From Escherichia coli (GTDB lineage: Bacteria > Pseudomonadota > Gammaproteobacteria > Enterobacterales > Enterobacteriaceae), in assembly GCF_046105845.1 (NCBI RefSeq), contig NZ_CP151004.1: a stretch of DNA of 64,000 nt; one strand, written 5' to 3'. The notes beneath the pieces were generated by a model. That model did no database searches. It was not told where the DNA came from and saw only the letters and a list, made by a program, of their open reading frames with translations. The translations under genes were made by a program, and so were the position numbers. This document shows, one piece after another, positions 7,551-29,252 of this stretch. Position 1 is the first letter of the stretch. Every line of letters begins with the position of its first letter.

Positions 7551-8288
7551 GCGCCATTCGCCTGGCATAATCTTTTGCCAGGTTTCATTGCCCGTCAGCG
7601 GCTGTGTCGCAATCACCGTGACCACATCATTCGGTGTGGTCTGCGAGCTGAAGTCGATTTCCACATCCTGATCCAGCAACGTTGCCACGCCAAACGGCGC
7701 GCGGCGGGTGATCCAGTGTAAATTAGTCGAGCAATACGCCATTACATAGCGCCCGTCAGAAAGCAGCATGTTGAAAACGCCCTTCTGCCGCAGTTCATCC
7801 GCCAGTGAGGCGATATATTTAAACACTGCCGCCATGTTGCCCGGTGTGCGCGGGTAACGCTGCGTTAATTTATGCAGGAGCCAGCAGAAGGCTTTTTCGC
7901 TGTCGGTTTCACCGACCGGGCGGAAGTTGCCGGTTTCCAGTGATTTATAGCCCGTCAGTTGCCCATTATGGGCATAAGTCCAGTTACGCCCCCATAACTC
8001 GCGGGTAAACGGGTGAGTATTTTCCAGCGCCACCTCGCCCCGATTCGCCTGGCGAATATGAGCCACCACCGAACAGGATTTTATCGGGTAGTCCTGGACA
8101 AGTTTGGCGATGGGAGAATTAAAGCTGGGTTGCGGATCTTTAAATGTGCGACAGCCTTTACCTTCGTAAAAGGTAATGCCCCAGCCATCTTTATGTGGCC
8201 CGGTTCCACCACCACGCTGTACAAGCCCGGTGAAACTAAAGCAGATATCGGTAGGGACGTTGGCGCTCATCCCGAGCAATTCGCACAT
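7521..8288 (-). CDS. yafJ: Class-II glutamine amidotransferase-like protein YafJ
   Basis: ORF 7521..8303; probable start at [11 protein letters not shown], typical of Ntn-type amidotransferases. Confidence 0.85.
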
Positions 8289-8403
8289 GGGTAACCTCCA
8301 CAACAGCGGGAGCGCATGGCCCCCGGCGAAGATTGATTAAAAAGTACAAAGGTTCAGGCTGTTACCCTCACCCCGGCCCTCTCCCTGAAAGGGAGAAAAG
8401 ACC

Positions 8404-8982
8404 TTACTTAACCATCTCTTTTTCAATCAACTGGATCAGGATATGGATCACTTTAATGTGAATCTCCTGAATGCGGTCGGCATAACCAAAGTGCGGTACG
8501 CGAATTTCGATATCCGCTGTGCCAGCCATTTTACCGCCGTCTTTACCGGTCAGGGTGATCACTTTCATCCCCTTCTCACGCGCCGCCGCGATCGCTTTGA
8601 TCACGTTTGCAGAGTTACCGGAGGTGGAGATCCCCAGCAGTACATCGCCTTCGCGACCTACCGCTTCAACGTAACGGGAGAAAATATCATTGAAACCAAA
8701 ATCGTTACCGACGCAGGAAATATGACTAACGTCAGAAATGGCAATCGCCGGATAGCCCGGACGGTTTTCACGGTAGCGACCGGTCAACTCTTCGGCAAAG
8801 TGCATGGCGTCGCAATGGGAGCCGCCGTTGCCGCAGGAAAGCACTTTACCACCGGCTTTAAAGCTGTCTGCTAACAGGACCGCCGCGCGCTGAATGGCGT
8901 GAATATTGGCGTCATCTTTTAAAAAGTTAGCCAGCGTTTCCGCCGCTTCGTTCAGTTCATTACGAATAAGATCCTGGTACAT
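8404..8982 (-). CDS. gmhA: Phosphoheptose (sedoheptulose-7-phosphate) isomerase GmhA
   Basis: 192 aa from [21 protein letters not shown]...; the ORF track extends 30 codons upstream of the real start. Confidence 0.92.
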
Positions 8983-9182
8983 GAGGATATCCTTCAGCAT
9001 AAATGTAATAGACAAAATGCAGTGTACCGGATACCGCCAAAAGCGAGAAGTACGGGCAGGTGCTATGACCAAGACTTTTTGACCTGAAGTGCGGATAAAA
9101 ACAGCAACAATGTGAGCTTTGTTGTAATTATATTGTAAACGTATTGCTAAATGTTTTTACATCCACTACAACCATATCATCA

Positions 9183-9199
9183 CAAGTGGTCAGACCTCC
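9183..9199 (+). promoter_or_regulatory. Putative FadR operator in the fadE promoter
   Basis: caagtggtcagacctcc resembles the FadR consensus (TGGTCNGACC core) about 25 bp upstream of the fadE start. Confidence 0.55.
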
Positions 9200-9221
9200 T
9201 ACAAGTAAGGGGCTTTTCGTT

Positions 9222-11666
9222 ATGATGATTTTGAGTATTCTCGCTACGGTTGTCCTGCTCGGCGCGTTGTTCTATCACCGCGTGAGCTTATTTATCAGCA
9301 GTCTGATTTTGCTCGCCTGGACAGCCGCCCTCGGCGTTGCTGGTCTGTGGTCGGCGTGGGTACTGGTGCCTCTGGCCATTATCCTCGTGCCATTTAACTT
9401 TGCGCCTATGCGTAAGTCGATGATTTCCGCGCCGGTATTTCGCGGTTTCCGTAAGGTAATGCCGCCGATGTCGCGCACTGAGAAAGAAGCGATTGATGCG
9501 GGCACCACCTGGTGGGAGGGCGACTTGTTCCAGGGCAAGCCGGACTGGAAAAAGCTGCATAACTATCCGCAGCCGCGCCTGACCGCAGAAGAGCAAGCGT
9601 TTCTCGACGGCCCGGTAGAAGAAGCCTGCCGGATGGCGAATGATTTCCAGATTACTCATGAGATGGCTGATTTGCCGCCGGAGTTGTGGGCGTACCTTAA
9701 AGAGCATCGTTTCTTCGCGATGATCATCAAAAAAGAGTACGGCGGGCTGGAGTTCTCGGCTTATGCCCAATCTCGTGTGCTGCAAAAACTCTCCGGCGTG
9801 AGCGGGATCCTGGCAATTACCGTCGGCGTGCCGAACTCATTAGGCCCGGGCGAGCTACTGCAACATTACGGCACTGATGAGCAGAAAGATCACTATCTGC
9901 CACGTCTGGCGCGTGGTCAGGAGATCCCTTGCTTTGCACTGACCAGCCCGGAAGCGGGTTCCGATGCGGGCGCGATTCCGGACACCGGGATTGTCTGCAT
10001 GGGCGAATGGCAGGGCCAGCAGGTGCTGGGGATGCGTCTGACCTGGAACAAGCGTTACATTACGCTGGCACCGATTGCGACTGTGCTTGGCCTGGCATTT
10101 AAACTCTCCGACCCGGAAAAACTGCTGGGTGGCGCAGAAGATTTAGGTATTACCTGTGCGCTGATCCCGACTACCACGCCGGGCGTGGAAATTGGTCGTC
10201 GCCACTTCCCGCTGAACGTACCGTTCCAGAACGGACCGACGCGAGGTAAAGATGTGTTCGTGCCGATCGATTACATCATCGGCGGGCCGAAAATGGCCGG
10301 GCAAGGCTGGCGGATGCTGGTGGAGTGCCTCTCGGTAGGCCGCGGCATCACCCTGCCTTCCAACTCAACCGGCGGCGTGAAATCGGTAGCGCTGGCAACG
10401 GGTGCGTATGCGCACATCCGCCGTCAGTTCAAAATCTCTATTGGTAAGATGGAAGGGATTGAAGAGCCGCTGGCGCGTATTGCCGGAAACGCTTATGTAA
10501 TGGATGCTGCGGCATCGCTGATTACCTACGGCATTATGCTCGGTGAAAAACCTGCCGTGCTGTCGGCTATCGTTAAGTATCACTGTACCCACCGTGGGCA
10601 GCAGTCGATTATTGATGCGATGGATATCACTGGTGGCAAAGGCATTATGCTCGGGCAGAGCAACTTCCTGGCCCGTGCTTACCAGGGCGCACCGATTGCC
10701 ATCACCGTTGAAGGGGCTAACATTCTGACCCGCAGCATGATGATCTTCGGACAAGGAGCGATTCGTTGCCATCCGTACGTGCTGGAAGAGATGGAAGCGG
10801 CGAAGAACAATGACGTCAACGCGTTCGATAAACTCCTGTTTAAACATATCGGTCACGTCGGTAGCAACAAAGTTCGCAGCTTCTGGCTGGGCCTGACGCG
10901 CGGTTTAACCAGCAGCACGCCAACCGGCGATGCCACTAAACGCTACTATCAGCACCTGAACCGCCTGAGCGCCAACCTCGCCCTGCTTTCTGATGTCTCG
11001 ATGGCTGTGCTGGGCGGCAGCCTGAAACGTCGTGAGCGTATCTCGGCACGTCTGGGGGATATTTTAAGCCAGCTTTACCTCGCCTCTGCCGTTCTGAAGC
11101 GTTATGACGACGAAGGCCGTAATGAAGCCGACCTGCCGCTGGTGCACTGGGGCGTACAGGATGCGCTGTATCAGGCTGAACAGGCGATGGATGATTTACT
11201 GCAAAACTTCCCGAACCGCGTGGTTGCCGGGCTGCTGAATGTGGTGATCTTCCCGACCGGACGTCATTATCTGGCACCTTCTGACAAGCTGGATCATAAG
11301 GTGGCGAAGATTTTACAAGTGCCGAACGCCACCCGTTCACGTATTGGTCGCGGTCAGTACCTGACGCCGAGCGAGCATAACCCGGTTGGTTTACTGGAAG
11401 AGGCGCTGGTGGATGTGATTGCCGCCGACCCAATTCATCAGCGGATCTGTAAAGAGCTGGGTAAAAACCTGCCGTTTACCCGTCTGGATGAACTGGCGCA
11501 CAACGCGCTGGCGAAGGGGCTGATTGATAAAGATGAAGCCGCTATGCTGGTGAAAGCTGAAGAAAGCCGTCTGCGCAGTATTAACGTTGATGACTTTGAT
11601 CCGGAAGAGCTGGCGACGAAGCCGGTAAAGTTGCCGGAGAAAGTGCGGAAAGTTGAAGCCGCGTAA
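9222..11666 (+). CDS. fadE: Acyl-CoA dehydrogenase FadE
   Basis: 814 aa from [22 protein letters not shown] (aagggg Shine-Dalgarno upstream); the ORF track begins 26 codons earlier. Confidence 0.92.
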
Positions 11667-11674
11667 TTGAATAA

Positions 11675-11699
11675 CGGAGCCGAAAGGCTCCGTTTCTTT
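11675..11699 (+). terminator. Rho-independent terminator after fadE
   Basis: cggagcc-gaaa-ggctccg hairpin followed by tttcttt. Confidence 0.6.
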
Positions 11700-11708
11700 A
11701 TCCGCTAA

Positions 11709-12182
11709 TTATTTAAAATTAAAGCCATCCGGATGGTTTTCCAGGCTGCCGGTCAACGCCGCGAACAGCACCGTTTTACCATCAATCGAAAGCGCATCGT
11801 TCACATTCAACCAGGTGAGTTTCTCTTGCGACGTTTTCTCATCAATGGTCGAGAACAGCCCCGTCATCTGATTAGATTTCTCGGACCACATCACAGCGAT
11901 ACGTTGCGAGCCACAGTCATGCGGTTTGCACGCGCTCATCACCTGATACGTCTCATCTCCCAATGTCACGGTTTGTGCAGGGGTATAAGTCCCGCCTTTC
12001 ATCACCCAAGCAGGCAGCTTATGCCCTTGCACCATCTGATTAAACGCAGCTTTGGTGGTTTCGCCCTTTGCAAGGCTGCTAATGGTTAAATCATCCTGCG
12101 CCATTGCACTGGTGGCGATGACCAGAGCGGCGACTGTCGTTATTGCCTTAAACATCATTCCTCCCGAGCTTATCCTGCCCAT
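11709..12182 (-). CDS. ivy: Inhibitor of vertebrate C-type lysozyme (Ivy)
   Basis: 157 aa ORF with signal peptide and the CKPHDCG motif. Confidence 0.9.
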   Translation of the reverse strand: MGRISSGGMMFKAITTVAALVIATSAMAQDDLTISSLAKGETTKAAFNQMVQGHKLPAWVMKGGTYTPAQTVTLGDETYQVMSACKPHDCGSQRIAVMWSEKSNQMTGLFSTIDEKTSQEKLTWLNVNDALSIDGKTVLFAALTGSLENHPDGFNFK

Positions 12183-12335
12183 GTTATTAACCTCCTAAAG
12201 CCTGGCGATAACACGATAATTTGCAAATCAGATATTTCCAATATCAGCATTTGTTATCAATTTATTCTGCGCTAAGGCAACTGCCTGATAAGGTGTTAGA
12301 GTTATAAAACCCTTCGCATAAAGGAGTTGTACACC

Positions 12336-13106
12336 GTGCCTGGTTTGAAGATTACGCTTTTACAGCAACCACTGGTGTGGATGGATGGTCCTGCCAACCT
12401 GCGTCATTTTGATCGTCAACTGGAAGGCATTACCGGGCGCGATGTGATCGTTCTACCGGAGATGTTTACCAGCGGCTTTGCCATGGAAGCGGCAGCTGCG
12501 TCGCTAGCACAAGATGACGTAGTGAACTGGATGACAGCCAAAGCGCAGCAGTGCAATGCGCTGATTGCAGGCAGTGTTGCATTACAAACGGAGTCTGGTT
12601 CGGTTAACCGCTTTTTGCTGGTTGAGCCGGGCGGCACGGTACATTTTTATGATAAGCGTCATCTGTTCCGCATGGCAGATGAGCATCTGCATTATAAAGC
12701 GGGCAATGCGCGAGTGATTGTGGAATGGCGCGGCTGGCGTATTTTGCCGCTGGTGTGCTACGACTTACGTTTTCCGGTGTGGTCGCGCAATCTCAACGAT
12801 TACGACCTCGCCCTGTACGTCGCCAACTGGCCTGCTCCGCGCTCTCTGCACTGGCAGGCATTGCTGACGGCCCGCGCGATTGAGAATCAAGCGTATGTGG
12901 CGGGATGCAATCGCGTCGGCAGCGATGGCAACGGCTGCCATTATCGCGGTGACAGCCGGGTGATTAATCCACAGGGCGAGATTATCGCCACCGCCGACGC
13001 GCATCAGGCAACGCGCATTGATGCGGAGCTGTCGATGGTGGCGTTGCGGGAGTATAGAGAAAAGTTTCCGGCATGGCGGGATGCGGATGAGTTTAGGTTG
13101 TGGTGA
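12336..13106 (+). CDS. yafV: Nitrilase-superfamily omega-amidase YafV
   Basis: Likely GTG start at 12336 (aaggag Shine-Dalgarno at 12321-12326) giving (M)PGLKITLLQQ...; carbon-nitrogen hydrolase fold. Confidence 0.85.
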   Translation: MPGLKITLLQQPLVWMDGPANLRHFDRQLEGITGRDVIVLPEMFTSGFAMEAAAASLAQDDVVNWMTAKAQQCNALIAGSVALQTESGSVNRFLLVEPGGTVHFYDKRHLFRMADEHLHYKAGNARVIVEWRGWRILPLVCYDLRFPVWSRNLNDYDLALYVANWPAPRSLHWQALLTARAIENQAYVAGCNRVGSDGNGCHYRGDSRVINPQGEIIATADAHQATRIDAELSMVALREYREKFPAWRDADEFRLW

Positions 13107-13162
13107 GTGGGTGTTGTGTTTAGGGCCGGGGAGAGTCGGGGTATGACTACGAAAGCCCCTAA

Positions 13163-13702
13163 CTTAAACACGATATTACGCCAGAAGTCACCATTTCCAA
13201 AACACAACGCCGTTGTACCGTGGGATATCTGCCCAACAGCAGCGACACGCCGGTGATCAAAATCAGCGCCAAATGGCTGAGAGAAGCGGGATTTGAGATC
13301 GGCACGGGCGTTACCGTGAAGATCCCGGAAGGTTGCCTGATCCTGCTTGCGGATAACAACGAAGTACAGGAACTGAGGAAGGAACTTTATAAGGTTAAAC
13401 AGGCTGTCTTCAATATAGAACCGGAGCGATTACGCCAGTCAGGATCTGACTTTAGTTGCCTTCTCTTTATTCTCATCATGGCTATTTGTTCTGCGGGATC
13501 AAGCTTTCCCTTTGCTATTCTCGCCTTCATATATTCAATTTGTTTCTCCAGATATGAAATCCCTGCCAGTGCGATGTGCTTCGGTATGTTCCATTTTTCA
13601 CGATATTCGTCAGCGCGTATTCCATGCACAAACCAGATATGGCGCGGTAAAAAAATGAGCAACTTGCCACACTCCAGACAGGGTATTTTTTCCCGCTTAT
13701 GA
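13163..13702 (+). CDS. SymE-family (type I toxin-like) ORF, possibly degenerate
   Basis: Residues TVGYLPNSSDTPVIKISAKWLREAGFEIGTGVTVKIPEGCLILLA align with E. coli SymE; no ATG (track start at 13220 is GTG; in-frame stop at 13160); the 3' ~250 nt lacks a stop only because it runs antisense to the MucR-like gene. Confidence 0.35.
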   Translation, partial: LKHDITPEVTISKTQRRCTVGYLPNSSDTPVIKISAKWLREAGFEIGTGVTVKIPEGCLILLADNNEVQELRKELYKVKQAVFNIEPERLRQSGSDFSCLLFILIMAICSAGSSFPFAILAFIYSICFSRYEIPASAMCFGMFHFSRYSSARIPCTNQIWRGKKMSNLPHSRQGIFSRL

Positions 13703-13758
13703 TATGCCAGAACCTCTTCACGCGTTTCGAATGGCCTGTTCCTCTCTTTTTTGTACAC
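13387..13758 (-). CDS. Ros/MucR-family zinc-finger DNA-binding protein (short form lacking the usual N-terminal domain)
   Basis: 123 aa ORF with CLECGKLLIFLPRHIWFVHGIRADEYREKWNIP, close to the Ros/MucR signature. Confidence 0.6.
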   Translation of the reverse strand: MYKKERNRPFETREEVLAYHKREKIPCLECGKLLIFLPRHIWFVHGIRADEYREKWNIPKHIALAGISYLEKQIEYMKARIAKGKLDPAEQIAMMRIKRRQLKSDPDWRNRSGSILKTACLTL

Positions 13759-13822
13759 AAAGACTCCTTTTAAAAAATGGCAAGGTCACATATCCCTTAT
13801 TGGTACATAAATCCCCCGACGT

Positions 13823-15199
13823 TTACTGACTTTGTTCCACCTTCGTATCCAGTAAAATTACATAGCGATTCAGCAACTGATTTAACCGGGTATCTATCTG
13901 CGTCAACAGCGTCGGCGAAACCTCTCCGGTCTGTTTTTGCTCTTCCAGTTGCCGAAGCAGTTCTTCCAGCGGCGGCTCCTTTAACGACTGCCGGATGCCG
14001 TACACCGCCGTTTTTAGTTCCGAGCCGGTCAGATATCTCCCCTTACGCTCATCCAGTGCATCCAGCTGCGCCGACAGGCGCTGTAGCTGGCTTTGCGCCT
14101 GTGCGTAGCCATTCAATGCCTCAGCAGACATGGCGCTCAGCTCCCGCTGCTTACGCCACTGCGCGTTCAGCGCCCTGACCTGAGGATTATCCGGCCACAG
14201 GGCATCAAGCTGGCGTAGCTGGCGATATCCCTGCTCCAGCGGCCAGCGGGCAGGCAATTTGTTTAACTGCTCCAGCTGCATCTGACTTGCCGCAATTGTT
14301 CTGTCCTGAGCCAGCAGCGCCTTATCCTTTACATCCAGCTTTGCCAGTTCGCCGCTCTCCAGCGACTGCGGCAACGGCATGACAGACAGTTGTATTCGCT
14401 GGATTAGCGCGTCCGGCTGATTAAGCTGCGACCAGCCCCATAATCCTGTTCCGCCGAGACAGGCCATCACAACCATTCCGGCCATAAATATCGGCCATGC
14501 CCGCTGCCGGGAGATTTCAGGGGATGGCACGGATGGACTGGCATCCTTATCGTTTTGCTGAGCGGGTCTGGTTGCAAAAACCGGCTGTGGACTTTCTTCT
14601 GACTTTTTCGGTTGCTTCATTTCCTTGCGGGGTAATTCAGGGGGAGTGATAGTGGTTTCCGCTCCCTGTGGTGCCAGCCGCTCCAGACGTAGCGCCGCAT
14701 TACGAAACTGCCCGGCCAGCACATCCAGTTTCGTCATATGCCACAGTTCACACTGTTGCAGCGTGGTTTCGATGGCGGAAAGATGCTGTACACAACGGTA
14801 AATCTGCGGCAGATCCTGATACTGAATATCCAGCGTTCTCAGTGCCTGCTGCATTTTTTCTGTGACCCAGCTGAGCAGTGATATTCTGGAATGTACCTGT
14901 ACCGGCCAGAAGTCGGCCCATCGCTGGAGCAGTATGTCCAGTGAACCGAGTCCGTCTGCCATCCCTGCCAGCCCCTGCCGTCTGGTTATCGCCAGTACGT
15001 AACAGACCAGCGTCTGTAATTCCACGCCATTTTGCCGGAACAGCGCGAGGCTGAGTTTTTCCACCTGACGCCAGTCCACATCCGGTCGGGCCGGGTGAGT
15101 CAGTTTACTCATTTCAGCCTGCAGTTCACCGGATTCCTTATAAGTACAGGGATCGCCGCCCATGACGAACTGGCTGATAAAATTCGCGTTACTTGCCAT
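13823..15199 (-). CDS. tagA: T6SS accessory protein with ImpA-like N-terminal domain (TagA-like)
   Basis: 458 aa; TssA/ImpA-like N-terminus, central hydrophobic segment (AWPIFMAGMVVMACLGGTGLWGW), coiled-coil C-terminus; last gene of the T6SS cluster. Confidence 0.55.
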   Translation of the reverse strand: MASNANFISQFVMGGDPCTYKESGELQAEMSKLTHPARPDVDWRQVEKLSLALFRQNGVELQTLVCYVLAITRRQGLAGMADGLGSLDILLQRWADFWPVQVHSRISLLSWVTEKMQQALRTLDIQYQDLPQIYRCVQHLSAIETTLQQCELWHMTKLDVLAGQFRNAALRLERLAPQGAETTITPPELPRKEMKQPKKSEESPQPVFATRPAQQNDKDASPSVPSPEISRQRAWPIFMAGMVVMACLGGTGLWGWSQLNQPDALIQRIQLSVMPLPQSLESGELAKLDVKDKALLAQDRTIAASQMQLEQLNKLPARWPLEQGYRQLRQLDALWPDNPQVRALNAQWRKQRELSAMSAEALNGYAQAQSQLQRLSAQLDALDERKGRYLTGSELKTAVYGIRQSLKEPPLEELLRQLEEQKQTGEVSPTLLTQIDTRLNQLLNRYVILLDTKVEQSQ

Positions 15200-15627
15200 C
15201 AGTACGCCCGCTCCTGCTGTTTGAGATGACGCAGAACAATTCGTCCTTCCGGAGAAAATACGCCATCAAAGCGTATCCAGCCGGTATCGGGAAGCTGCGC
15301 GTGGATCAGGTAATTAAGATGCCCCGGACGGGGCTGGGGGAGTAACTCCACCTGTATCTGACTCAGGCGTGGTTCATAACGCAGCAGCGTTTCTTCAATC
15401 TGACGCATCAGGCCATGAATACCCGCAGCCATCCCCTGATGGATCAGACTGAGATCCGGCAGACCGTAATCCGGCAAATGCGCCAGCGTGCCTGCCCGAC
15501 AGTTGATAATGCGTTGCATATTGTCCATCACGGAAAGGATAAGCTGATCCCGCTCGCTGACCTGTTCCAGTGGTAACTCGCCGCTGAAACTGAACGTCAG
15601 CATTTCATATAAGGAAGGTGTCGACAT
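15199..15627 (-). CDS. tssE: T6SS baseplate subunit TssE (gp25-like)
   Basis: 142 aa; size and sequence typical of TssE; within the T6SS gene run. Confidence 0.85.
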   Translation of the reverse strand: MSTPSLYEMLTFSFSGELPLEQVSERDQLILSVMDNMQRIINCRAGTLAHLPDYGLPDLSLIHQGMAAGIHGLMRQIEETLLRYEPRLSQIQVELLPQPRPGHLNYLIHAQLPDTGWIRFDGVFSPEGRIVLRHLKQQERAY

Positions 15628-15630
15628 CGG

Positions 15631-16167
15631 TTATTTATCCTTGAGAGGCAGCAGTCGCAGGTCGCTTCTCATCAGTTCAATCGAGCGCGGCTTGTCGGCC
15701 TCCAGTTCGTCCCTTTTGATCACCAGACGCCAGCTGTCGCTTTTTTCATCAGGGTGATAAAACTGCCCGATAATGGCGACAAACTGCGTCTCTTTATCCA
15801 GCGGCTCATTCAGGGATGCCGTGCCTTCCGGTTTTACCCAGACGGTGTGTTTTGCCAGTACGTCCTTCTCCAGCGTCTTCTCTTCCTGCATAAACAGGGT
15901 GTCATAATCCGCCTTGTCAAAATCTTCGCGGGTTTTCAGTTGCCAGACATGCACCATCGTGGAAAGCGGCGTATCTTCCGCATCCGTATTCAGGGCACTT
16001 CGGGAGAAGAAATCGAGATGCAGTATTTTGATTTGCTTGTAGAAAACGGCTGAGGCCACGCTTTTCGATTCATCCACCACTTTCTGAATCAGCCCGCAGC
16101 CACTCAGAACAACCGTCAGCATCGCCATACAGAGCAGCGCCGGACGTTTAAAACGAATAGGAAACAT
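15631..16167 (-). CDS. tssJ: T6SS outer-membrane lipoprotein TssJ
   Basis: 178 aa with lipoprotein signal (LTVVLSGCG); size and context of TssJ/SciN. Confidence 0.8.
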   Translation of the reverse strand: MFPIRFKRPALLCMAMLTVVLSGCGLIQKVVDESKSVASAVFYKQIKILHLDFFSRSALNTDAEDTPLSTMVHVWQLKTREDFDKADYDTLFMQEEKTLEKDVLAKHTVWVKPEGTASLNEPLDKETQFVAIIGQFYHPDEKSDSWRLVIKRDELEADKPRSIELMRSDLRLLPLKDK

Positions 16168-17236
16168 GAGTCATACACTCCCTGTTACGAATGGATAAAG
16201 CGGGTATTAATCCCTGATAACGCCCCAGACTGACCGTCACTGTTCCGGTCGCGGGCGCGGCAAAGGAGGCGCGAAGGATGCCGGTACGGCTAATCTGTAC
16301 GCGCTGTTTTCCCAGCCGGGCAGCAGGCAACAGGCTGACGGGCAGTGTCAGTTGCAGACGGGCCTGACAGCGCCAGCCCAGATAAACGCGCAGCAGTACC
16401 AGCAAATCGCTGTGCAGCTGTCCGCCAGGCAGCCAGCCACGCGCTTCTGCGGCATCTTCGGTATACAGTTTCAGCAGCAACTGGCTGTTGACGTCGGTGC
16501 CGGTACGCCCCAGCAGCGTTCGCGTTTTCAGGCTGATGCGTGAATTTTTTGACAGACCCGCAGGGGCCGGGAGAATAACAGGCTGCGGATCATGAGGCAC
16601 CACCGTCGCTTTCGTCAGCGGGGCAAGCAGTCCCACCAGTGCCGTAACGCCTTCCGCCGTGCGCGTCGGCAGGCGCATCACGCTGAGCAGGGCCAGAAAA
16701 CGGGATACCGGCGTGGCGATATGGTTCTCGCTGCCGGGAATACCCAGCCCGATGAGTCCCAGCAGACAACGGGAAATGTCATCCACAGCACCTGCTTCAA
16801 ACGACGCCGGGTAGTTATATTTGCGCCAGATGCGGTAATACTGGGTGATAAAGCGGTGGTTAAAAATATCGAGAAACGCCATCACTGCGTCATGTCCGTC
16901 ATGACGCTGGGTAATGTAGTCCAGATAGGCGGTTGGCAGCGGCGAATCCACGCCGTACAGGCCGAAAAAGGTGGTGCGCACCGTGGGTGGTGCGTCGGGA
17001 TTGTCCACGTCACGTTCAACGTTCTTTAACTCGCTGACCGGAAAGCCCATTCCGGGATGGGGACGAAAGCGCACCGCATCGGCGGCGGGGCTGTCGGTAC
17101 TGCCCAGCGGCGCTTTCTGTTGGCTCTGTTCCAGCAACTGGCAAAAACGGTAAAAATTGATCCGCGCAATATCCGGGGCCAGCCGGTCGGTCAGCCCGGT
17201 ACGCGCTGGCTGTGATGCTCTGTCCATTGCAGGCAC
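16148..17236 (-). CDS. tssG: T6SS baseplate subunit TssG
   Basis: 362 aa ORF overlapping the tssF stop; TssG-like sequence. Confidence 0.85.
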   Translation of the reverse strand: MPAMDRASQPARTGLTDRLAPDIARINFYRFCQLLEQSQQKAPLGSTDSPAADAVRFRPHPGMGFPVSELKNVERDVDNPDAPPTVRTTFFGLYGVDSPLPTAYLDYITQRHDGHDAVMAFLDIFNHRFITQYYRIWRKYNYPASFEAGAVDDISRCLLGLIGLGIPGSENHIATPVSRFLALLSVMRLPTRTAEGVTALVGLLAPLTKATVVPHDPQPVILPAPAGLSKNSRISLKTRTLLGRTGTDVNSQLLLKLYTEDAAEARGWLPGGQLHSDLLVLLRVYLGWRCQARLQLTLPVSLLPAARLGKQRVQISRTGILRASFAAPATGTVTVSLGRYQGLIPALSIRNRECMTHVSYSF

Positions 17237-18951
17237 TTTCCTGTGGGTTGCAGAATTAAGGTCAGTTGAGTGAATAAGTGGATATCGGCATACAGTGCGA
17301 AGAAGCGGTGCAGCAGTTCACCAAACAGTGTGATATCACCTTCTCCGGCAAAGCCGTTACTGTCCAGCGTTACCTGAATATCCACGCCACGCAGCAGAAA
17401 GCCTCTTTCAAAACGCTGTATCAGGCTGTGCTGAACGTCGACAATCGCCTCCAGACGACGGCGGTTCATCTCGCTTTCGGTCCAGTCGTACAACGCCAGC
17501 GTGCCGCGCACAATTTCGGCGTTATCCATCATCGATAAAAAGTTAGAACCAAGGTGGCTGAGCACCCGCCAGTGGAAGCGGTCACGCGCCGGGGGATAGC
17601 AGGGCTGCGTCGGGGCGCACAGGTTGCGCACCCGCAGGACGTTCTGTGAGGCGTGGACTGGCGTATCGAGTAGCGTGCTCTGTAAAGCTTTACGGGGAAG
17701 CTGCCCGTTAGTGCCGGTCAGACTTAAGGACAGAGTTTCATCCTCCAGCATCCGGTCAGAATCAAACGCATCGCCGCCCAGAATCAGCCAGGTATCATGC
17801 AGGCCGGAAGGGCCGCGCTTAACCCGCGTATGGTAATAACGTTCCGGCGCATCGTGGCGCAGCATCCCGCCCCGGTGACGAAAGCTGGAGAATGGCACAT
17901 ACGCCTGACTGCCGGTATGGCGCGAAGAAATAATGTTGTCGACGGAATAAATCTCGGTATGCCCGTCCTGAATTCGCATCGGGCGCAGCAGAAATTCGTT
18001 TTCCAGTGGCGAAAGGTGTAACGGATCGGCTTCCAGCGGGAACAGGTTGATAACCGGCACGCAGTGCAGGCGGAGATTGTCGGTATTAAACGGCAAATCA
18101 TGAGGCCAGCTTTCCGCCAGCACCACGTCAATCTCAAAGCCGGTTATCCCTTCCGGCCAGATGACGTTCTCCAGCCCGTTGAGTGCCACAAACATAAACT
18201 TCTCGCGGAAGGTGAAATACTCCAGCAGCAACTGGTAGCCGCTGAACGCCGACTCGCCTTTTGGCCAGAGCCTGTCATTATCCTCAAAGCCCAACGGGGA
18301 AAAGTGTGCGTCAAGCGTCCGGCGATCCTGCCCCGGCAGACGCAACCAGAACTGCTGCGTACCAAGCGTTAAAGCCCGGTGCAGCGCACAGGCCACCGGA
18401 CTGTCGGCATTGAGATAGAGCGGCAGGCGGGATAAATCGATCTGTGACCAGTCACCGACCAGCGGGCCGCATTCAAAGCGCAGACGAATAACCGAACGTC
18501 CGTCCGGTTCATATTGCAATGACACGTCCGGCAACGCCAGCGGATGCAGCGTGATATCCCGCGTGGCGCTGTAGAAACAGCGGGTTCTGCGCTCGCCAAC
18601 AGGGCGCGACAATACCTGAAAATCGCTCAGCGTTTCGCTCTGCTTCATCTGCCGGTGATCTGTCGACAGTTCAACCACGGAAAGTGACGGGATAGTTCGC
18701 AGGTAGTGAGGCCACAGCAGGCTGACCAGCCCTTCAGTCAGCTCCGGCAGATCGTCGTCCAGCTTCTCGCGCAGGCGGCCCATTAAAAAAGCAAAGCCTT
18801 CGAACAGGCGTTCCACATAGGGATCGCGTGCGCCGGGTTTATCAAGATTGAGCATCGCGGCGCGGTCGGGGTAAGCCTGCGCAAATTCTTTCCCCGCTTC
18901 ACGCAGGTAGCGCATTTCGGCTTCGTAGTAGCGTTGGGTTAAGTCGTCCAT
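17191..18951 (-). CDS. tssF: T6SS baseplate subunit TssF
   Basis: About 586 aa from MDDLTQRYYEAEMRYLREAGKEFA (Shine-Dalgarno upstream); the ORF track starts 13 codons earlier. Confidence 0.85.
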   Translation of the reverse strand: MDDLTQRYYEAEMRYLREAGKEFAQAYPDRAAMLNLDKPGARDPYVERLFEGFAFLMGRLREKLDDDLPELTEGLVSLLWPHYLRTIPSLSVVELSTDHRQMKQSETLSDFQVLSRPVGERRTRCFYSATRDITLHPLALPDVSLQYEPDGRSVIRLRFECGPLVGDWSQIDLSRLPLYLNADSPVACALHRALTLGTQQFWLRLPGQDRRTLDAHFSPLGFEDNDRLWPKGESAFSGYQLLLEYFTFREKFMFVALNGLENVIWPEGITGFEIDVVLAESWPHDLPFNTDNLRLHCVPVINLFPLEADPLHLSPLENEFLLRPMRIQDGHTEIYSVDNIISSRHTGSQAYVPFSSFRHRGGMLRHDAPERYYHTRVKRGPSGLHDTWLILGGDAFDSDRMLEDETLSLSLTGTNGQLPRKALQSTLLDTPVHASQNVLRVRNLCAPTQPCYPPARDRFHWRVLSHLGSNFLSMMDNAEIVRGTLALYDWTESEMNRRRLEAIVDVQHSLIQRFERGFLLRGVDIQVTLDSNGFAGEGDITLFGELLHRFFALYADIHLFTQLTLILQPTGKCLQWTEHHSQRVPG

Positions 18952-19026
18952 CGGAGGATTTATCTTTCCTTTTATTGAAATTAATACCAACGAGTAGTGA
19001 GATTAGAATTTTTTATTTTCAGAATC

Positions 19027-19431
19027 CTAAGGACATATAGATGGATCATTTATTTCAAAAGAAAAATCGGACTCCATACTAGATGAGGATTTTTTCAATA
19101 AAGAGGAGATATGATATCCAGATAAAGTTTTAGAATTGTTACCATCAGATATCAAAATACTAAGTTCAGAAACAATATTTACAGGGTTTTTATTAAAAAC
19201 ATCTGACTCTCTACCTGTGTAAATAAAGTATACAATTGGCTTCCGCTCTCCGATATCAAGATGAAAATTATCTCTTACTTTACCATCATAATGTGTTGAA
19301 TTATTGACCGTCGAAATGTTAATAGATACTTTGCATGTATTTACCATGACAATGGAACAAGAATAGAATGGTTGAGATAAACATCCAGCACACAGCGTAC
19401 ATAATAAAAAAAAGAATATTAATCTAGTCAT
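19027..19431 (-). CDS. Small lipoprotein, candidate immunity protein for the upstream PAAR toxin
   Basis: 134 aa, lipoprotein signal MTRLIFFFLLCTLCAGC; 8-bp overlap with the PAAR-toxin gene; AT-rich. Confidence 0.5.
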   Translation of the reverse strand: MTRLIFFFLLCTLCAGCLSQPFYSCSIVMVNTCKVSINISTVNNSTHYDGKVRDNFHLDIGERKPIVYFIYTGRESDVFNKNPVNIVSELSILISDGNNSKTLSGYHISSLLKKSSSSMESDFSFEINDPSICP

Positions 19432-20863
19432 GAAATTTCACCCGAGATAACCATATCATTGCACATACATCGTTTTCGACAGCAACCGACCTTGCATATA
19501 GATCACTGGTGTATATATGCCCATTATAATATTTCATTAAATCTATCTCGCCAGTTCCTGGATAAACTGAATGAGGCAGTGCATATTGAGGTGGTACAAG
19601 ATTAGAGGTCCCTTTATGCTCCCATGAATACGTATTCCCACCGTAACTTTTTAATATCATATGACCAGTCTCATGGGCTACATCAAGTTTAAATTCTAAT
19701 CCAGCCTTAAAAACAGGATCCGCGCCTTTCTGATACCCACGGCCATATTCATAATACCCCCTATTGAAATAAATGTTCATACGTCCCATAAAAGCACTAG
19801 ACCTGACGCTTTCTAGATCTTGCTCCTCAATTAAATCAAAAGAATCCATGGCTGGATCAATATTTATTGATACAGAGATATTTACATTATATTTACCGTG
19901 CGGAGTAGTAATATTATTGCCAATTCCGGGATTCCTCATTCCATTTCGTGCCCAATAATACTCTATTCCATCCTTGGCAAGTTGCTTTAATTTTTCAAAC
20001 CCTACAGGTGCAATACGATCATCTTTATGACTCACACCATCATCTTCAAATTCTACTCGCCAACTGACATCAACTATTTTTTGATTCTTGTCTACTTTTA
20101 CATCAATCCAATCTTCCTCATTCGCAGAAGTTTTCAATGGATAATCAACTTTTATCATCATATCACCACATAAAGCAATCAGTCTTACGAGTAGTGATTT
20201 GCTTTTTAGCTTAGTTGTATCCAGTATGTCTTGATTACTGTAGCCATCCCATTGCCAGGCATGCTCTCCCTTATCAAAATATTTACCGGTCTGCTGTTCA
20301 CTATAAATCACTTCATTACCATCAAGCACTTCCAGAGAAAGCGCTTCAGCCTCATCGCCTTTATTTGTGATGGTAAAATCTATTTTTTCTGTATTCTTCG
20401 TACTACCACCGCTAATCATTTCTTTATAATCAGGTATATTCAATGGCGTCAGTATCTTATTACCTGATAATTTAATTCTGTAATCCAGTTTTACATCATC
20501 TGAGGATGAATCAGAACCAGAAGTCAGATCCTTTTTCGCCGACTGCGCATGTTGTTCCGCTTCACTTCCCCCGTCATCCGTCTCATACACATCATCCATC
20601 ATTGACGCAATAAATCGCGCCTTACACGGGCAACTGCTCTGACTGTCCAGCGATCCCGCCATCAGCCTGCCGTGAATATCCGTTTCCGGCACGCCGCCGA
20701 CGATAATAAACATCCCCGAATGTTTACCGCAGGTCACTCTGTCCATATCCCGCGCCTGCGGGATACCCATGATCGTATGGTCGTCCGCCCCTTCAATAAT
20801 TTTGCCGCCGCAGGTGGTCTTATCGCCCCTGACCAGAAAATAGCCTCTTCCCATCGTCATCAC
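19424..20863 (-). CDS. PAAR-domain T6SS effector with C-terminal HExxH (zinc-metallopeptidase-like) domain
   Basis: 479 aa; N-terminal PAAR-like region (GDKTTCGGKIIEGADDHT...VTCGKHSG...IIVGG), acidic/Ser-rich linker, C-terminal domain with VAHETGHM; AT-rich C-terminal half. Confidence 0.65.
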   Translation of the reverse strand: MMTMGRGYFLVRGDKTTCGGKIIEGADDHTIMGIPQARDMDRVTCGKHSGMFIIVGGVPETDIHGRLMAGSLDSQSSCPCKARFIASMMDDVYETDDGGSEAEQHAQSAKKDLTSGSDSSSDDVKLDYRIKLSGNKILTPLNIPDYKEMISGGSTKNTEKIDFTITNKGDEAEALSLEVLDGNEVIYSEQQTGKYFDKGEHAWQWDGYSNQDILDTTKLKSKSLLVRLIALCGDMMIKVDYPLKTSANEEDWIDVKVDKNQKIVDVSWRVEFEDDGVSHKDDRIAPVGFEKLKQLAKDGIEYYWARNGMRNPGIGNNITTPHGKYNVNISVSINIDPAMDSFDLIEEQDLESVRSSAFMGRMNIYFNRGYYEYGRGYQKGADPVFKAGLEFKLDVAHETGHMILKSYGGNTYSWEHKGTSNLVPPQYALPHSVYPGTGEIDLMKYYNGHIYTSDLYARSVAVENDVCAMIWLSRVKFHD

Positions 20864-22497
20864 TCCTTATGCTGCGTATCACACAGTACCGCTGCCCGTA
20901 CCGGATCGATTGTCACCAGCGTTCCCAGCAGGATTTCCATTTTTCGGTTCAGCAGGGCTTTATCCGCATAGCGGTGCGCCCGCAGGCGCAGCAGTTTCAG
21001 TTGCCGGGCTTTTACCTCAAACAGCAGTTCCGGCTCCCACTGCGTCAGCGTTATTCCCTGTGCGGCGGTATCCAGTTCTTCCAGCAGCAGGAGTGCCATC
21101 TCGTTTTTACCGTACTGTTCCGCCACCCGCGCCATCAGCAGCCGCAATAACAGGCGCTGTCGTGCCGTGGTGATGCCCGGACGGGTCTGTATCCAGCCCA
21201 GCGCCGCTTCCACGCCCTGACTGTCTGCCATCTCCAGTGCTTCCGGCTCCAGCGCCAGTACGTCATTTGTGGCGTCGTCTGTCGGTACAGCGGCTTTCCC
21301 CGCAAGCCATGCGCCGTCTTCCCGCATCATGACCTGCTGCGCTATCCAGTTGCGCGTCACCTCATCGGCGAACGGTGTGCCGTCGTTCCATGCCAGATTT
21401 TCCAGCCCCGGCAGGCGTTCCAGCAGTAACGCCAAGTCCTGACGGATAACGGCTGTCCACCTGTCCCACGGTACGCCCGCCTTAGTCAGCGCCTGATGCA
21501 GATACCACTGAATGTCCAGCCAGAAATGGCTGACGCCGGTGCTGAACATCAGGTCGGCCTGCTCCAGCAGTTCCGTCCAGTTCTGCTGGGCATACAGCCG
21601 CTTAAGCTGATTGCGTGACTCGGTGCGCGGCGGGGCCAGCCGGGTTTTGCCGTCCACATCCGGCGGCAGTTCATGCACCGTGTCCCAGCGCAGGGTTTTC
21701 ATCAGCCGGTGCGCCGAAAGCCAGCCCTGCGGCTGTTCATTCAGATAACGGGCCAGCACTTTCGCCTGGTCGAGCAGGTCACGCCCGGAGGTGATGGTCT
21801 GTACCTGTGGCGCATCCACCGGGGATGACGGTGCAGGAACGCTGCTGCTGTTTTGCGGCACCACTGCGTTCATCCCTCCCGACTGCGCCAGACGCGATTC
21901 CAGCGCGTTAATCAGCGGCATCAGGGAGGGGGAATGCTGGTCTTCGGGCCATGCAGTGAAGGAAACCGTCAACTGACTGAGGGCAGCAACAATGTTCGCA
22001 AAATCCTCTTTTGCCACTTCCGGGTAGCGGGCAAGGCTGTCGAGCATCTTTTCCCCCGCCAGCCACTCCAGCGCCATTTTCCGGCTGGCCGGTCGCGAGG
22101 GCAGCAGTTGCGTACCGAAGCGTTCCACCAGTCCGGTCAGCAGCGCCAGTCCTTCCGCCAGTCCGCGCTCACCGTCGCGGTGCAGTCGCGCCCAGATGTA
22201 GTAAGTGGCGATGCGCACGTCTTTTGCCTGCGTCAGCAGCAGGGATTCGGCAAGCTGGCAGATGAGGTCCGTATCCGCGCCGGAAAGTTTGTTCATCTCG
22301 TCGCGGATACGCAGAAAATCGTCGTGGTAGCCGGGGTCTTCCCCGACCGGCGTATCTGTCGTCACCGGCAGCAGCCATGTCTGCCACAGTGCCGCCTGTG
22401 CTCGCGCCACATCCAGTGCATCCCGGTCGGCAAAACAGCTACGGGTCAGCTTTTGCAACAGTTCACTCATCGGCGTCTTCCCCGTATTCTTCCGCAT
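20860..22497 (-). CDS. tssA: T6SS protein TssA (ImpA-family cap protein)
   Basis: About 536-545 aa (possible start at MSELLQKL); TssA-like; immediately downstream of tssM. Confidence 0.8.
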   Translation of the reverse strand: MRKNTGKTPMSELLQKLTRSCFADRDALDVARAQAALWQTWLLPVTTDTPVGEDPGYHDDFLRIRDEMNKLSGADTDLICQLAESLLLTQAKDVRIATYYIWARLHRDGERGLAEGLALLTGLVERFGTQLLPSRPASRKMALEWLAGEKMLDSLARYPEVAKEDFANIVAALSQLTVSFTAWPEDQHSPSLMPLINALESRLAQSGGMNAVVPQNSSSVPAPSSPVDAPQVQTITSGRDLLDQAKVLARYLNEQPQGWLSAHRLMKTLRWDTVHELPPDVDGKTRLAPPRTESRNQLKRLYAQQNWTELLEQADLMFSTGVSHFWLDIQWYLHQALTKAGVPWDRWTAVIRQDLALLLERLPGLENLAWNDGTPFADEVTRNWIAQQVMMREDGAWLAGKAAVPTDDATNDVLALEPEALEMADSQGVEAALGWIQTRPGITTARQRLLLRLLMARVAEQYGKNEMALLLLEELDTAAQGITLTQWEPELLFEVKARQLKLLRLRAHRYADKALLNRKMEILLGTLVTIDPVRAAVLCDTQHKE

Positions 22498-27126: not shown

Positions 27127-27504
27127 TTACTCTGATACATTTATGGTATATATTTTGCCAAACCGTCCTCTGCCACCACCACCTATGGAGAATCCTCCGA
27201 TTTCAATGACTATCGCCCCTTTTACAACAGGGATACCCTGAACAATAAGGCAACTATTTTGGTCTGGCTCAAAAACATCAATAGTCAAACCCGAATTCTC
27301 AGGCCTGAAATCTTTCAATGGAAAAAAAGGTACAGGCCCAACTCCTCCTGAAATCTCGATTTTTGCATAGTAACTCTGACCTAATTTTGCATCAGGCAAG
27401 GAGTCTGGGGAAACAGTAGTTTTTGGGATGATTAGCATATGTAAACATCCAGTTAGTGATATTGATAATGAACATATGAGTAAAAATTGAATTGTCTTTT
27501 TCAT
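27127..27504 (-). CDS. Small lipoprotein (candidate immunity protein)
   Basis: 125 aa; MKKTIQFLLICSLSISLTGC lipobox; AT-rich; in the cargo block downstream of the second vgrG. Confidence 0.5.
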   Translation of the reverse strand: MKKTIQFLLICSLSISLTGCLHMLIIPKTTVSPDSLPDAKLGQSYYAKIEISGGVGPVPFFPLKDFRPENSGLTIDVFEPDQNSCLIVQGIPVVKGAIVIEIGGFSIGGGGRGRFGKIYTINVSE

Positions 27505-28397
27505 GACTTGTTAGTGTCAATGTCAATATAAACCTGATTGGATCTAATGTTAAATTTATCTTCAAGTTTTTCACCCGACATATCAAGATTTAGCAGTAAT
27601 TTTTTAATTCCATCGTCGTTATTATCACCTAAGCATGAATTATCTGGTTCGAGGTGGCTATTATCTTTATTAAAGAAGCATATGTATTTCTGGCTCAATA
27701 GATTAAACATTTTTTTATAGATGCGCTGCCGAACAAGCCATTGTTCATTGACAAACGGATATTCAAGAGTACCTACCTTGTAACGCCGTAAGCCCGGCGG
27801 AAAAGCATATAAAGATTTATTCAAATAAATACTGACAACATACTTTTCCCCGGATTTAATCTCGAACCAGTTTCCAGAATCAGGATCGTCATCATAGCCA
27901 TTACAAAATGAACCCAGAAAATCCAGTCTTGAGTTATCAGTAATAATAAGAAAGTCTTGTTTACATGATGAGGTATATGCCATGTCTTGTTTATTTTTTT
28001 TAAAAAAAGTCAGAAAAATATCAGGAAGATAGAATGAATGGTGGCTTTTATTTTCAAATTCTATAGTCATTACAACTTCTTTTTTAGATTTTTGCTCTGC
28101 AAATAAACGGATAAACATGTTGATTTCAGACTGTAGCTTTTTATTTTCTTTATCATCCAATAAGTATCCTGGTGAGAGGAAAACATACTTCTCATCATCA
28201 CGTAATGGATAAAAAAAAGGTGAGTCAGTTACTATTCTGCTTTCCCCATAACCATAACCATACTTCTTAAAAACCAGTAAGTCATCGGCAATTGAATTAA
28301 GTGAAAACAGCAATAAGAAACAAAAAATTGCATAATTAATAAATTTACTAAATGTATGCAAAATAACCTCCTTCAATAAAAAATCAAAAAAAAACAC
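27501..28397 (-). CDS. Hypothetical exported protein (candidate immunity protein)
   Basis: 298 aa; N-terminal hydrophobic signal-like segment (YAIFCFLLLFSLNSIADD); very AT-rich; 4-bp overlap with the downstream lipoprotein gene. Confidence 0.45.
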   Translation of the reverse strand: MFFFDFLLKEVILHTFSKFINYAIFCFLLLFSLNSIADDLLVFKKYGYGYGESRIVTDSPFFYPLRDDEKYVFLSPGYLLDDKENKKLQSEINMFIRLFAEQKSKKEVVMTIEFENKSHHSFYLPDIFLTFFKKNKQDMAYTSSCKQDFLIITDNSRLDFLGSFCNGYDDDPDSGNWFEIKSGEKYVVSIYLNKSLYAFPPGLRRYKVGTLEYPFVNEQWLVRQRIYKKMFNLLSQKYICFFNKDNSHLEPDNSCLGDNNDDGIKKLLLNLDMSGEKLEDKFNIRSNQVYIDIDTNKS

Positions 28398-28448: not shown

Positions 28449-29252
28449 TTACTCGGGTGGTGGTGGGGGATTATTATCAACTATAATTTTTAAATCCTTA
28501 CTCATGTCCTCTTCCACAGATTTTTTTATATCTATTAAAATCTCTTCATTCAGAGCTATCTGAAAATATTTCTCAACATTATAAGCACTTCTGAAAACGG
28601 CCTGATTGTGTTGACTAACCATTGTTTTTGCAGCAGCCAAATGAGCATCACCACTCATAAATGCCGGTTTCCCTTGCGCATTCATATCATGTGTGCTCAT
28701 TCCACCACCAATACCACCTTTGCCGGTCCTACAAAAATGAGACATTTCATGACACAGCGTTGAAACCTGAGAATCAACACCACATAATGGTTTGTCCTTA
28801 AACTTTCCAGCTATAAAAATATGATAATCTTTATCAATAAATTCATTAACTCTGGCAGTGAAATTCCCACATACCGTATTATTAATATAATAGCAAGTTA
28901 ACACTCCATCCTTATCATATCTGAACATTTGATTATGAATTGTTTTAATCCTCTTGATACCATCCTGCATTATTAACAATGCAGTCTGTTTAGTTTCATC
29001 ATCATCTCCTATCAATTCATCACCTTTGGTGCCAAATATTTTATAAAACTCGCTTATCTCTTTTTCCTTCCCCCCCTTATTCCAACCCTCAAGAGAATGT
29101 TCGCGAATCTCAAGAACTTTTTCTTGGGCTTTGTGTGCTCGTAATATCATCTCTTTAAATTTATTAGTAATAACAACTTCAGCGACACAAATCTCTACAG
29201 TAGCTGGAGCTGGAGCTGGCTTGCCGTTTGATATTTTATTTCCCATATACAT
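28449..29252 (-). CDS. Candidate T6SS effector with HExxH metallopeptidase-like motif
   Basis: 267 aa; LCHEMSHF motif; Pro/Ala-rich ends; 7 bp downstream of vgrG copy B; AT-rich. Confidence 0.5.
   Translation of the reverse strand: MYMGNKISNGKPAPAPATVEICVAEVVITNKFKEMILRAHKAQEKVLEIREHSLEGWNKGGKEKEISEFYKIFGTKGDELIGDDDETKQTALLIMQDGIKRIKTIHNQMFRYDKDGVLTCYYINNTVCGNFTARVNEFIDKDYHIFIAGKFKDKPLCGVDSQVSTLCHEMSHFCRTGKGGIGGGMSTHDMNAQGKPAFMSGDAHLAAAKTMVSQHNQAVFRSAYNVEKYFQIALNEEILIDIKKSVEEDMSKDLKIIVDNNPPPPPE

Follow-up and report, generated by a model that had tools for sequence, protein, structure and literature searches.

The 64,000-nucleotide stretch of Escherichia coli contig NZ_CP151004.1 analysed here (the window) contains a type VI secretion system (T6SS) cluster in which the gene of a toxin that carries a PAAR domain at its N-terminus overlaps the gene of a 134-residue lipoprotein. 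The toxin is likely to be a specialised ('evolved') spike-tip effector, a zinc hydrolase active in the periplasm of the target cell and neutralised by the lipoprotein in an allele-specific manner. This reading derives from the fold and the conserved motif of the C-terminal module of the toxin and from the behaviour of the lipoprotein gene, which evolves under purifying selection and in about 830 E. coli genomes has outlasted its toxin as an orphan. The features on which it is based are listed below, with toxin residues numbered throughout in the 479-residue frame of the longest open reading frame (ORF).

19424–20854, minus strand: toxin gene, a PAAR–linker–β-sandwich–zincin putative T6SS effector (ORF list, Shine–Dalgarno sequence and RefSeq homologues)
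20654–20827, minus strand: PAAR domain core, residues 13–70 (Pfam PF05488, E 2.7e-9)
20498–20599, minus strand: acidic and Ser-rich flexible linker, residues 89–122 (predicted local distance difference test, pLDDT, below 50 in the full-length model)
20024–20491, minus strand: predicted Ig-like β-sandwich, residues ~125–280, with an invariant W-x-W-D-G-Y/F motif (W203–Y208)
19427–20023, minus strand: predicted zincin-like catalytic domain, residues ~281–479, polymorphic and probably immunity-specifying
19661–19675, minus strand: HETGH, an HExxH motif, H397/E398/H401 (translation)
19529–19549, minus strand: EIDLMKY, E439–Y445, with the candidate extra metal ligands E439 and D441 and the Met-x-Tyr pair (translation and conservation)
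19027–19431, minus strand: putative immunity gene, 134-residue lipoprotein (ORF and family alignment)
19027–20110, minus strand: allelic cassette, toxin residues ~253–479 plus the immunity gene (identity in 40-residue blocks; translations of loci L005 and L006)

For the part of the toxin beyond the linker, an AlphaFold2 model was built on an alignment of 142 diverse homologues. The model of residues 125–479 is of very high confidence (pLDDT 96.6, predicted template modelling score 0.94) and consists of the β-sandwich packed onto an α/β domain, in which the HETGH motif is located on a long helix. Residues E398, G400, H401 and Y445 are invariant among the 142 homologues, while at least 90% of them conserve H397, H416, Q426, E439, D441, M443 and D465. 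In a subset of the 32 most diverse catalytic domains, the residues H397, H416, E439, D441, M443 and D465 become invariant as well. By our own rough estimate an HExxH motif is expected by chance in about 1% of proteins of this size; a chance origin is nevertheless ruled out here because the motif is kept in all or nearly all of these diverse homologues.

On the basis of this model the C-terminal domain reads as a divergent zincin. In the zincin sequence (HETGHMILKSYGGNTYSWEH) H416 follows H401 by 15 residues, and the extended metzincin motif HExxHxxGxxH/D with its characteristic spacing of the third histidine is not present. The M443-x-Y445 pair, which is invariant in the 32 most diverse sequences, resembles a metzincin Met-turn with its tyrosine, as found in astacin and serralysin, and may have a similar structural role. 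The segment GEIDLMKY (438–445) is also similar to the aspzincin motif GTxDxxYG, with the tyrosine one position off and no match to PF14521. In the comparison with the metzincins and the other zincins (MEROPS clan MA), the nearest solved fold found is that of E. coli YbeY (PDB entry 1xm5). Searches of Pfam, NCBIfam and PDB sequences with the single sequence, a profile of the whole module or a profile of the catalytic domain returned no match to the module. Candidate matches to PtsN, FlgD, HP0162, YME1 and CapP were rejected as chance similarities or as matches to the HExxH helix alone, and a Foldseek search of the full-length model against the PDB gave PAAR structures and weak β-sandwich matches only.

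The N-terminus is by comparison easily recognised. PAAR_motif is the sole significant match in a Pfam scan of the toxin (a match to the FlgD Ig-like domain is insignificant), and the folded cone spans approximately residues 8–88. The full-length AlphaFold2 model has a mean pLDDT of 82.7, with confident PAAR and C-terminal parts and values of 82–90 over residues 10–80. Its N-terminus superposes on chain D of PDB entry 4jiw, the E. coli PAAR protein c1882 solved in complex with a VgrG-like β-helix, with a Foldseek probability of 1.0, a template modelling score of 0.67 and a root-mean-square deviation of 3.2 Å over 88 columns, and model and match together indicate the conical PAAR fold. The linker is modelled as disordered and varies in length among homologues. 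No prePAAR motif or transmembrane segment was seen in the N-terminus and linker when these were read by eye, no prediction tool being used. PAAR-repeat spike-tip proteins bearing C-terminal toxin extensions were reportedly described by Shneider et al. in 2013; as in these proteins, of which c1882 is an example, the N-terminal 85 residues of the present toxin agree with PF05488 and with the PAAR fold, and the toxic part is fused directly at the PAAR C-terminus. The present toxin lacks Rhs repeats.

An earlier note on this DNA, made from its letters and ORFs, had described two ORFs of 479 and 134 residues that overlap by 8 bp between tssA and tssF, the first with a PAAR domain, an acidic and serine-rich linker and an AT-rich HExxH domain that it could not name, and the second encoding a lipoprotein. 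This anatomy holds in every part, except that the likely start codon shortens the toxin to 476 residues. The AT-rich region is equally clear: the G+C fraction is ~0.60 in the core genes of the cluster and falls to 0.30–0.39 over positions 18900–20550.

The β-sandwich and the zincin domain belong together as one conserved module of ~355 residues. A profile of 357 positions retrieved 549 clusters (50% identity level), of which 230 have E<1e-30, and the matches listed span both domains. The module is present in Proteobacteria and Bacteroidota, in at least 549 sequence clusters. Its delivery partners vary. Among the 142 members Pfam identifies PAAR in 15, DUF4280 in eight, Hcp/TssD in three and eCIS_core, of extracellular contractile injection systems (eCIS), in one. 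Cell-wall-binding domains occur as PG_binding_1 (two members), LysM (one) and OmpA (one), and a single protein (P0131) carries all three kinds. The majority have no Pfam domain at all, and the module also occurs standing alone. Homologues in AFDB50 come from Gammaproteobacteria and many Flavobacteriia and are nearly all labelled as uncharacterised, PAAR or DUF4280 proteins; the label 'Pyocin large subunit' on an occasional one is an apparent misnomer. A DUF4280-fused member has TssN and TssO as neighbours in a T6SS cluster of Bacteroidota.

No description of the module was found in the literature on the T6SSs of E. coli, Salmonella, Enterobacter and Acinetobacter or in PAAR surveys. The sequence behind the entry 'STox_19, metallopeptidase' in a Salmonella catalogue could not be checked, and the module family may already have been catalogued there. 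The toxin and immunity families are absent from description in every library and paper searched, while the type of system is ordinary for a T6SS. With slightly less than even confidence we propose that the module defines a large and previously unrecognised toxin family of contractile injection systems (carried by PAAR and Hcp in proteobacterial T6SSs, by DUF4280 in Bacteroidota T6SSs and by eCIS), with a new zincin site HExGH ... H ... ExDxMxY, its own family of lipoprotein immunity proteins and an envelope target unlike that of the known T6SS peptidases. The same proposal holds that orphan resistance in E. coli, also in pandemic sequence type 131 (ST131), outnumbers the weapon by an order of magnitude and is invisible in RefSeq. 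The toxin and immunity families are large and clinically widespread, and the locus provides a common T6SS cluster of E. coli, Salmonella and Citrobacter with a toxin domain that has no Pfam, NCBIfam or PDB entry. Through this system a possibly new subtype of zincin, and its substrate, may become tractable.

The lipoprotein was assessed from its sequence and the family alignment for a basic n-region, a hydrophobic h-region and a lipobox [LVI][ASTVI][GAS]C. It has a predicted signal peptide (residues 1–16), a predicted lipidated Cys17 with Leu at position +2, a conserved Cys33 and a C-terminal I-C-P motif. Sorting to the outer membrane is expected because the +2 residue is Leu. The protein has no Pfam or NCBIfam match, and its family became visible because synteny and profile comparison were combined. 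In Salmonella (L003), Citrobacter (L007) and Enterobacteriaceae RIT691 (L009) a PAAR toxin is followed, again with an 8 bp overlap, by an ORF of 139–142 residues in the order tssA–toxin–ORF, which in L003 and L009 closes with tssF. The same overlap recurs in a distant metagenomic locus (L014). The aligned downstream ORFs share the lipoprotein signal, an N-x-C motif ~15 residues past the lipidated Cys and the C-terminal I-C-P, and the conserved Cys pair suggests a periplasmic disulfide. When signal peptides were removed, alignment of the mature window lipoprotein with the homologues from four other loci gave an hhalign probability of 97.7% (E 2e-12), with 117 of 118 residues aligned. Small lipoproteins likewise follow two very distant toxin homologues, namely the LysM–OmpA–PG_binding fusion (with an 8 bp overlap) and the Bacteroidota T6SS member. 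In L009 four consecutive immunity paralogues of 139, 123, 139 and 124 residues (L009:4481-6319) lie between the PAAR toxin and tssF as an orphan-immunity array; two of these ORFs were called without a signal peptide, possibly owing to mis-called starts.

A further argument for an immunity function comes from the alleles of the locus in E. coli. Comparison in 40-residue blocks shows that three alleles (A, the allele of the window, B and C) are 90–100% identical over residues 1–240 of the toxin and 32–53% identical beyond. As identity drops beyond about residue 240, the exchanged cassette begins just past W252, and it includes the immunity gene. In genomes such as GN03204 and one ST131 isolate the order is tssA, PAAR toxin B, a 141-residue lipoprotein B, an intact orphan lipoprotein A and tssF. 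Copies of the lipoprotein A gene are located at L005:1628-2035 and at L010-L012:2501-2905, and allele C is accompanied by a lipoprotein of 110 residues. The locus thus has the attributes of a polymorphic toxin: a conserved N-terminal delivery part, a variable C-terminus, a downstream immunity gene and orphans. The allele and orphan arrangement agrees with the model of sequential effector displacement given for arrays of orphan immunity genes, as in the aux clusters of Vibrio cholerae (cited in PMC6730261). There, too, a cassette of effector C-terminus and immunity gene is swapped within the gene and the old immunity gene stays behind downstream; in the present locus, by contrast, the displacing and displaced toxins belong to the same family (32–53% identity). 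With their shared delivery half and diverged catalytic halves and immunity proteins, the three alleles constitute a natural experiment on toxin–immunity specificity.

DNA of the catalytic domain (19432–20100) is present in 79 of 5426 complete E. coli genomes, while that of the lipoprotein gene (19027–19431) is present in 907 (905 of them full-length, 95–98.5% identity). The immunity gene is thus about eleven times commoner than its toxin, and in ~830 genomes it is an orphan beside a replaced toxin allele. Relative to the window copy, one cognate and four orphan copies differ by 4–13 synonymous and 2–8 non-synonymous substitutions, corresponding to a ratio of non-synonymous to synonymous rates (dN/dS) of ~0.08–0.17. 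These five copies are intact and a sixth is interrupted by IS1. In strain 504838 (L010, 2985–5405) toxin B is itself a pseudogene with an internal stop, adjacent to IS3 and group II intron fragments, and both the lipoprotein B gene and the orphan lipoprotein A gene are retained intact. Because the orphan is kept under purifying selection once its cognate toxin is gone, the lipoprotein gene appears to behave as an immunity gene, and this pattern is hard to explain otherwise. The earlier note had assigned immunity from gene position only. Homologous lipoproteins recur behind homologous toxins in Salmonella, in Citrobacter and in a further Enterobacteriaceae genus, with other E. coli alleles and in distant lineages, and together with the selection on the orphans this now gives that assignment strong comparative support.

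Most of twelve sampled matches to the lipoprotein gene have no annotated feature beneath them. In the RefSeq entries sampled, the match is unannotated save for the overlapping toxin gene in E. coli NGF1, and some GenBank submissions list a 'hypothetical protein'. Annotation seems to overlook this gene, which is under purifying selection, systematically. Surveys based on annotation will miss a widespread resistance determinant, since the antidote gene is little annotated and so much commoner than the toxin. T6SS effector repertoires decide the coexistence of strains in the gut.

These observations suggest the following mechanism. The PAAR cone would cap a VgrG trimer, for which the cluster provides two vgrG genes (29259..31760 and 33296..35785), and the flexible acidic linker would tether the rigid two-domain toxin of ~355 residues. 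Sheath contraction would drive the spike into a neighbouring Gram-negative cell and free the secreted toxin in the periplasm. There the HExGH centre (H397, E398 and H401, with a further zinc ligand among H416, E439 and D441) would hydrolyse an envelope substrate, either peptide bonds of peptidoglycan or envelope proteins and lipoproteins, such that target growth stops or the cell lyses. Periplasmic action is favoured because neither a transmembrane segment nor a prePAAR motif was seen, because the immunity lipoprotein is expected to face the periplasm and because fusions to peptidoglycan-binding domains occur occasionally. The lipoprotein, probably anchored in the outer membrane facing the periplasm and stabilised by a disulfide, would guard the producer and its kin by direct, allele-specific binding to the zincin domain. 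Recombination would exchange the immunity gene together with the toxin's C-terminal half as one cassette, and a displaced allele would leave its old immunity gene behind as an orphan.

Several points weigh against this reading. Its basis is confined to sequence, models and comparative genomics. The lipobox of the window lipoprotein is atypical (C-A-G-C, that is MTRLIFFFLLCTLCAG followed by the lipidated Cys, with a Cys at position −3), although those of the aligned homologues (FLAGC, FLSGC, FLTGC and LISGC) conform to the canonical L-A/S/T-G-C. A direct homologue search with lipoprotein A retrieves E. coli copies only, its family membership being visible at the profile level only. The eCIS-linked member indicates that the module is not confined to bacterial periplasmic targets. 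Finally, PG_binding_1 is also the fold of matrix-metalloproteinase propeptides, which makes two of the fusions ambiguous as pointers to a peptidoglycan substrate.

Within the periplasmic reading two kinds of substrate are considered. The toxin may be an endopeptidase of peptidoglycan, cleaving its stem peptides or cross-links and causing lysis, a possibility that we hold tentatively and at less than even odds. The fusions of module members to LysM, OmpA-like and PG_binding_1 domains and the predicted periplasmic location of the immunity protein are consistent with it, and peptidoglycan is the commonest periplasmic target of T6SS effectors (PMC12994826). However, there is no Pfam or PDB similarity to the known families of peptidoglycan metallopeptidases (M15, M23, M74 and others), and wall-binding domains, with the ambiguity of PG_binding_1, occur in only about four of the 142 members. 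The other option, only slightly less probable, is a protease of envelope proteins or lipoproteins that would disturb division and envelope integrity and leave the sacculus uncut. It draws on the closest functional analogues of our toxin, the periplasm-acting T6SS HExxH toxins represented by the VgrG2b C-terminus with PA0261 in Pseudomonas aeruginosa, Tpe1/Tpi1 in Acinetobacter baylyi and SARI_02727/SARI_02726 in Salmonella arizonae (PMC6899460, PMC12992299). These toxins are fused to or carried by a spike component, their immunity protein is encoded by a small downstream ORF, faces the periplasm and is an outer-membrane lipoprotein in Enterobacteriaceae, and their true substrate is still unresolved (PMC6899460, PMC12992299). 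In this class toxicity is not rescued by osmoprotection and membrane lipoproteins are depleted, and the VgrG2b C-terminal domain has been proposed to release lipoproteins from membranes (PMC6899460). The present system shares the HExxH chemistry, the spike fusion and a downstream, periplasm-facing lipoprotein immunity with this class. Judging from the model, the β-sandwich fixed on the catalytic domain could also serve as an exosite for a protein substrate, and the Met-x-Tyr pair is reminiscent of protein-cleaving metzincins. Against a protease stand the lack of homology to the VgrG2b/DUF4157 family and the lack of any clue to a substrate in the genomic context.

The resemblance to the Tpe/VgrG2b toxins is indeed one of analogy. 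The present module is about twice as large, has an obligatory β-sandwich and differs in the conserved residues beyond HExxH. An identity with DUF4157 (PF13699) was rejected: there is no PF13699 match at E<=10, and hhalign against the DUF4157 domain of P0125 gives a probability of 0.7% over 14 columns around HExxH only. The VgrG2b C-terminal structure (PDB entry 6H56) is absent among the 50 best Foldseek PDB matches listed for the full-length model. The window lipoprotein, compared with the Tpi proteins, has no DUF7480 or other Pfam match, and its likeness to them is likewise analogous and not homologous.

Two explanations place the module outside interbacterial antagonism in the periplasm. It is improbable that the module is mainly an anti-eukaryotic, host-directed protease and that the lipoprotein is no immunity protein. 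Strains that carry the allele do include E. coli from the gut and from extra-intestinal sites (NC101 and NGF1, for example), one member has an eCIS cargo domain and eCIS often target eukaryotes, and VgrG2b has been proposed as a cross-kingdom effector (PMC6899460). Nevertheless, the lipoprotein family co-varies with the toxin alleles and the orphan is maintained under purifying selection, a pattern to be expected only where kin cells meet the toxin, and one toxin is followed by as many as four paralogous lipoprotein genes. Still less probable, and in our view very improbable, is that the extension is a structural or adaptor domain comparable to TTR extensions, which loads other cargo and in which HExxH serves some purpose other than toxicity, for example self-processing. 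PAAR and VgrG proteins can indeed have β-sandwich extensions that are adaptors (PMC6899460), and as the only PAAR found in the window the protein would have a structural role in any case. Yet the module is attached to four different delivery domains and also stands alone, it is always paired with a small lipoprotein, and allelic divergence is concentrated in the catalytic domain and the lipoprotein. These are hallmarks of toxin–immunity pairs and not of adaptors. A periplasmic zinc hydrolase with a cognate lipoprotein immunity is the reading that we retain.

The flanking genes and the translation signal of the toxin gene are as follows.

20860–22497, minus strand: tssA, upstream core gene (RefSeq annotation of a 96%-identical locus and the ORF list)
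20863–20868, minus strand: AAGGAG, probable Shine–Dalgarno sequence of the toxin gene, overlapping the last tssA codons (sequence reading)
17191–18951, minus strand: tssF, downstream core gene, 586 residues from the RefSeq-equivalent start (the longest ORF reaches 18990)

The names tssA and tssF were transferred from E. coli NGF1 as annotated in RefSeq (96.3% identity over 18900–21000). Over its full length the toxin is 96–100% identical to the NGF1 and NC101 proteins. Its longest ORF (19424..20863, minus strand) starts with GTG at 20863 and encodes 479 residues. The ATG at 20854, which gives a product of 476 residues, is the likely start because AAGGAG lies 8 nt upstream and because the homologues are annotated by RefSeq as 'PAAR domain-containing protein' of 476 residues. 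The tssA stop codon TGA (20860–20862) lies within the ribosome-binding region of the toxin gene, the toxin and lipoprotein genes overlap by 8 bp (ATGACTAG), and 75 bp separate the immunity stop codon from tssF. A scan of the locus for promoters and terminators, including the spaces between genes, gave no signal exceeding the expectation from shuffled sequence; the pair is therefore probably transcribed together with the core genes (tssM–tssA ... tssF). The overlap probably couples lipoprotein translation to toxin translation. A search of the window by tblastn with two queries found no other PAAR-like sequence, and the small PAAR protein of NGF1 is absent. For these reasons the effector may double as a requirement for assembly of the apparatus.

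In other Enterobacteriaceae an equivalent PAAR domain and linker (70–86% identity over the first ~110–140 residues, compared with window 20600–20863) are joined to unrelated C-terminal domains, among them S-type pyocin/colicin E3, Ntox44, DUF2235 lipase and Aspzincin_M35. Since the related N-terminus carries such different domains, the tssA-proximal PAAR gene appears to be a general recombination hotspot for toxin domains. The earlier note had described the pair as inserted between core genes. This applies to what varies, the toxin's C-terminal half with the immunity gene, but a PAAR effector at this site is the normal state in E. coli, Salmonella and Citrobacter.

The left flank of the T6SS cluster (the side of window positions 1–18951) is the fadE–dinB–lafU region, ~97.5% identical to E. 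coli, and in NGF1 and NC101 the homologous cluster lies at another chromosomal site, beside recD–argA–amiC. Coverage of window positions 1–20000 reaches 80% or more in a single complete genome. Of the complete genomes listed as the six best matches, only two continue into the T6SS genes, and both matches end at 18951, the end of tssF. As both stop there, the present combination of cluster location and toxin allele appears to be rare among complete genomes.

The earlier note had also pointed to a second HExxH protein in the cluster, and rightly so. A 267-residue AT-rich ORF with the motif HEMSH (28449..29252) lies directly downstream of the vgrG gene at 29259–31760. Its only family match is a weak one to Aspzincin_M35 (E 0.057), and kinship with the PAAR toxin was rejected at an hhalign probability of 1.6%. 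Beyond it lie a 298-residue ORF (27501–28397) and a 125-residue ORF (27127–27504) with a lipoprotein-like signal (LTGC); none of the three ORFs has an NCBIfam match. The 267-residue protein is probably a further VgrG-linked effector with its immunity gene or genes. Downstream of the other vgrG gene (33296–35785) is an AT-rich gene for a 296-residue protein (32412–33302) with a glycine-zipper-like hydrophobic C-terminus, GGWGGAVAGAKIGTVIGASLGV...GGIVFGAAGYFG, followed by a 205-residue ORF (31805–32422), again with no NCBIfam match for either. These look like a membrane-disrupting cargo effector and its immunity gene. The two vgrG genes are arranged in tandem and are near-identical over ~780 residues, differing in the last ~50, and each has its own candidate effectors; E. 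coli NGF1 has a single vgrG, with a Tle1-type lipase and Tli genes instead.

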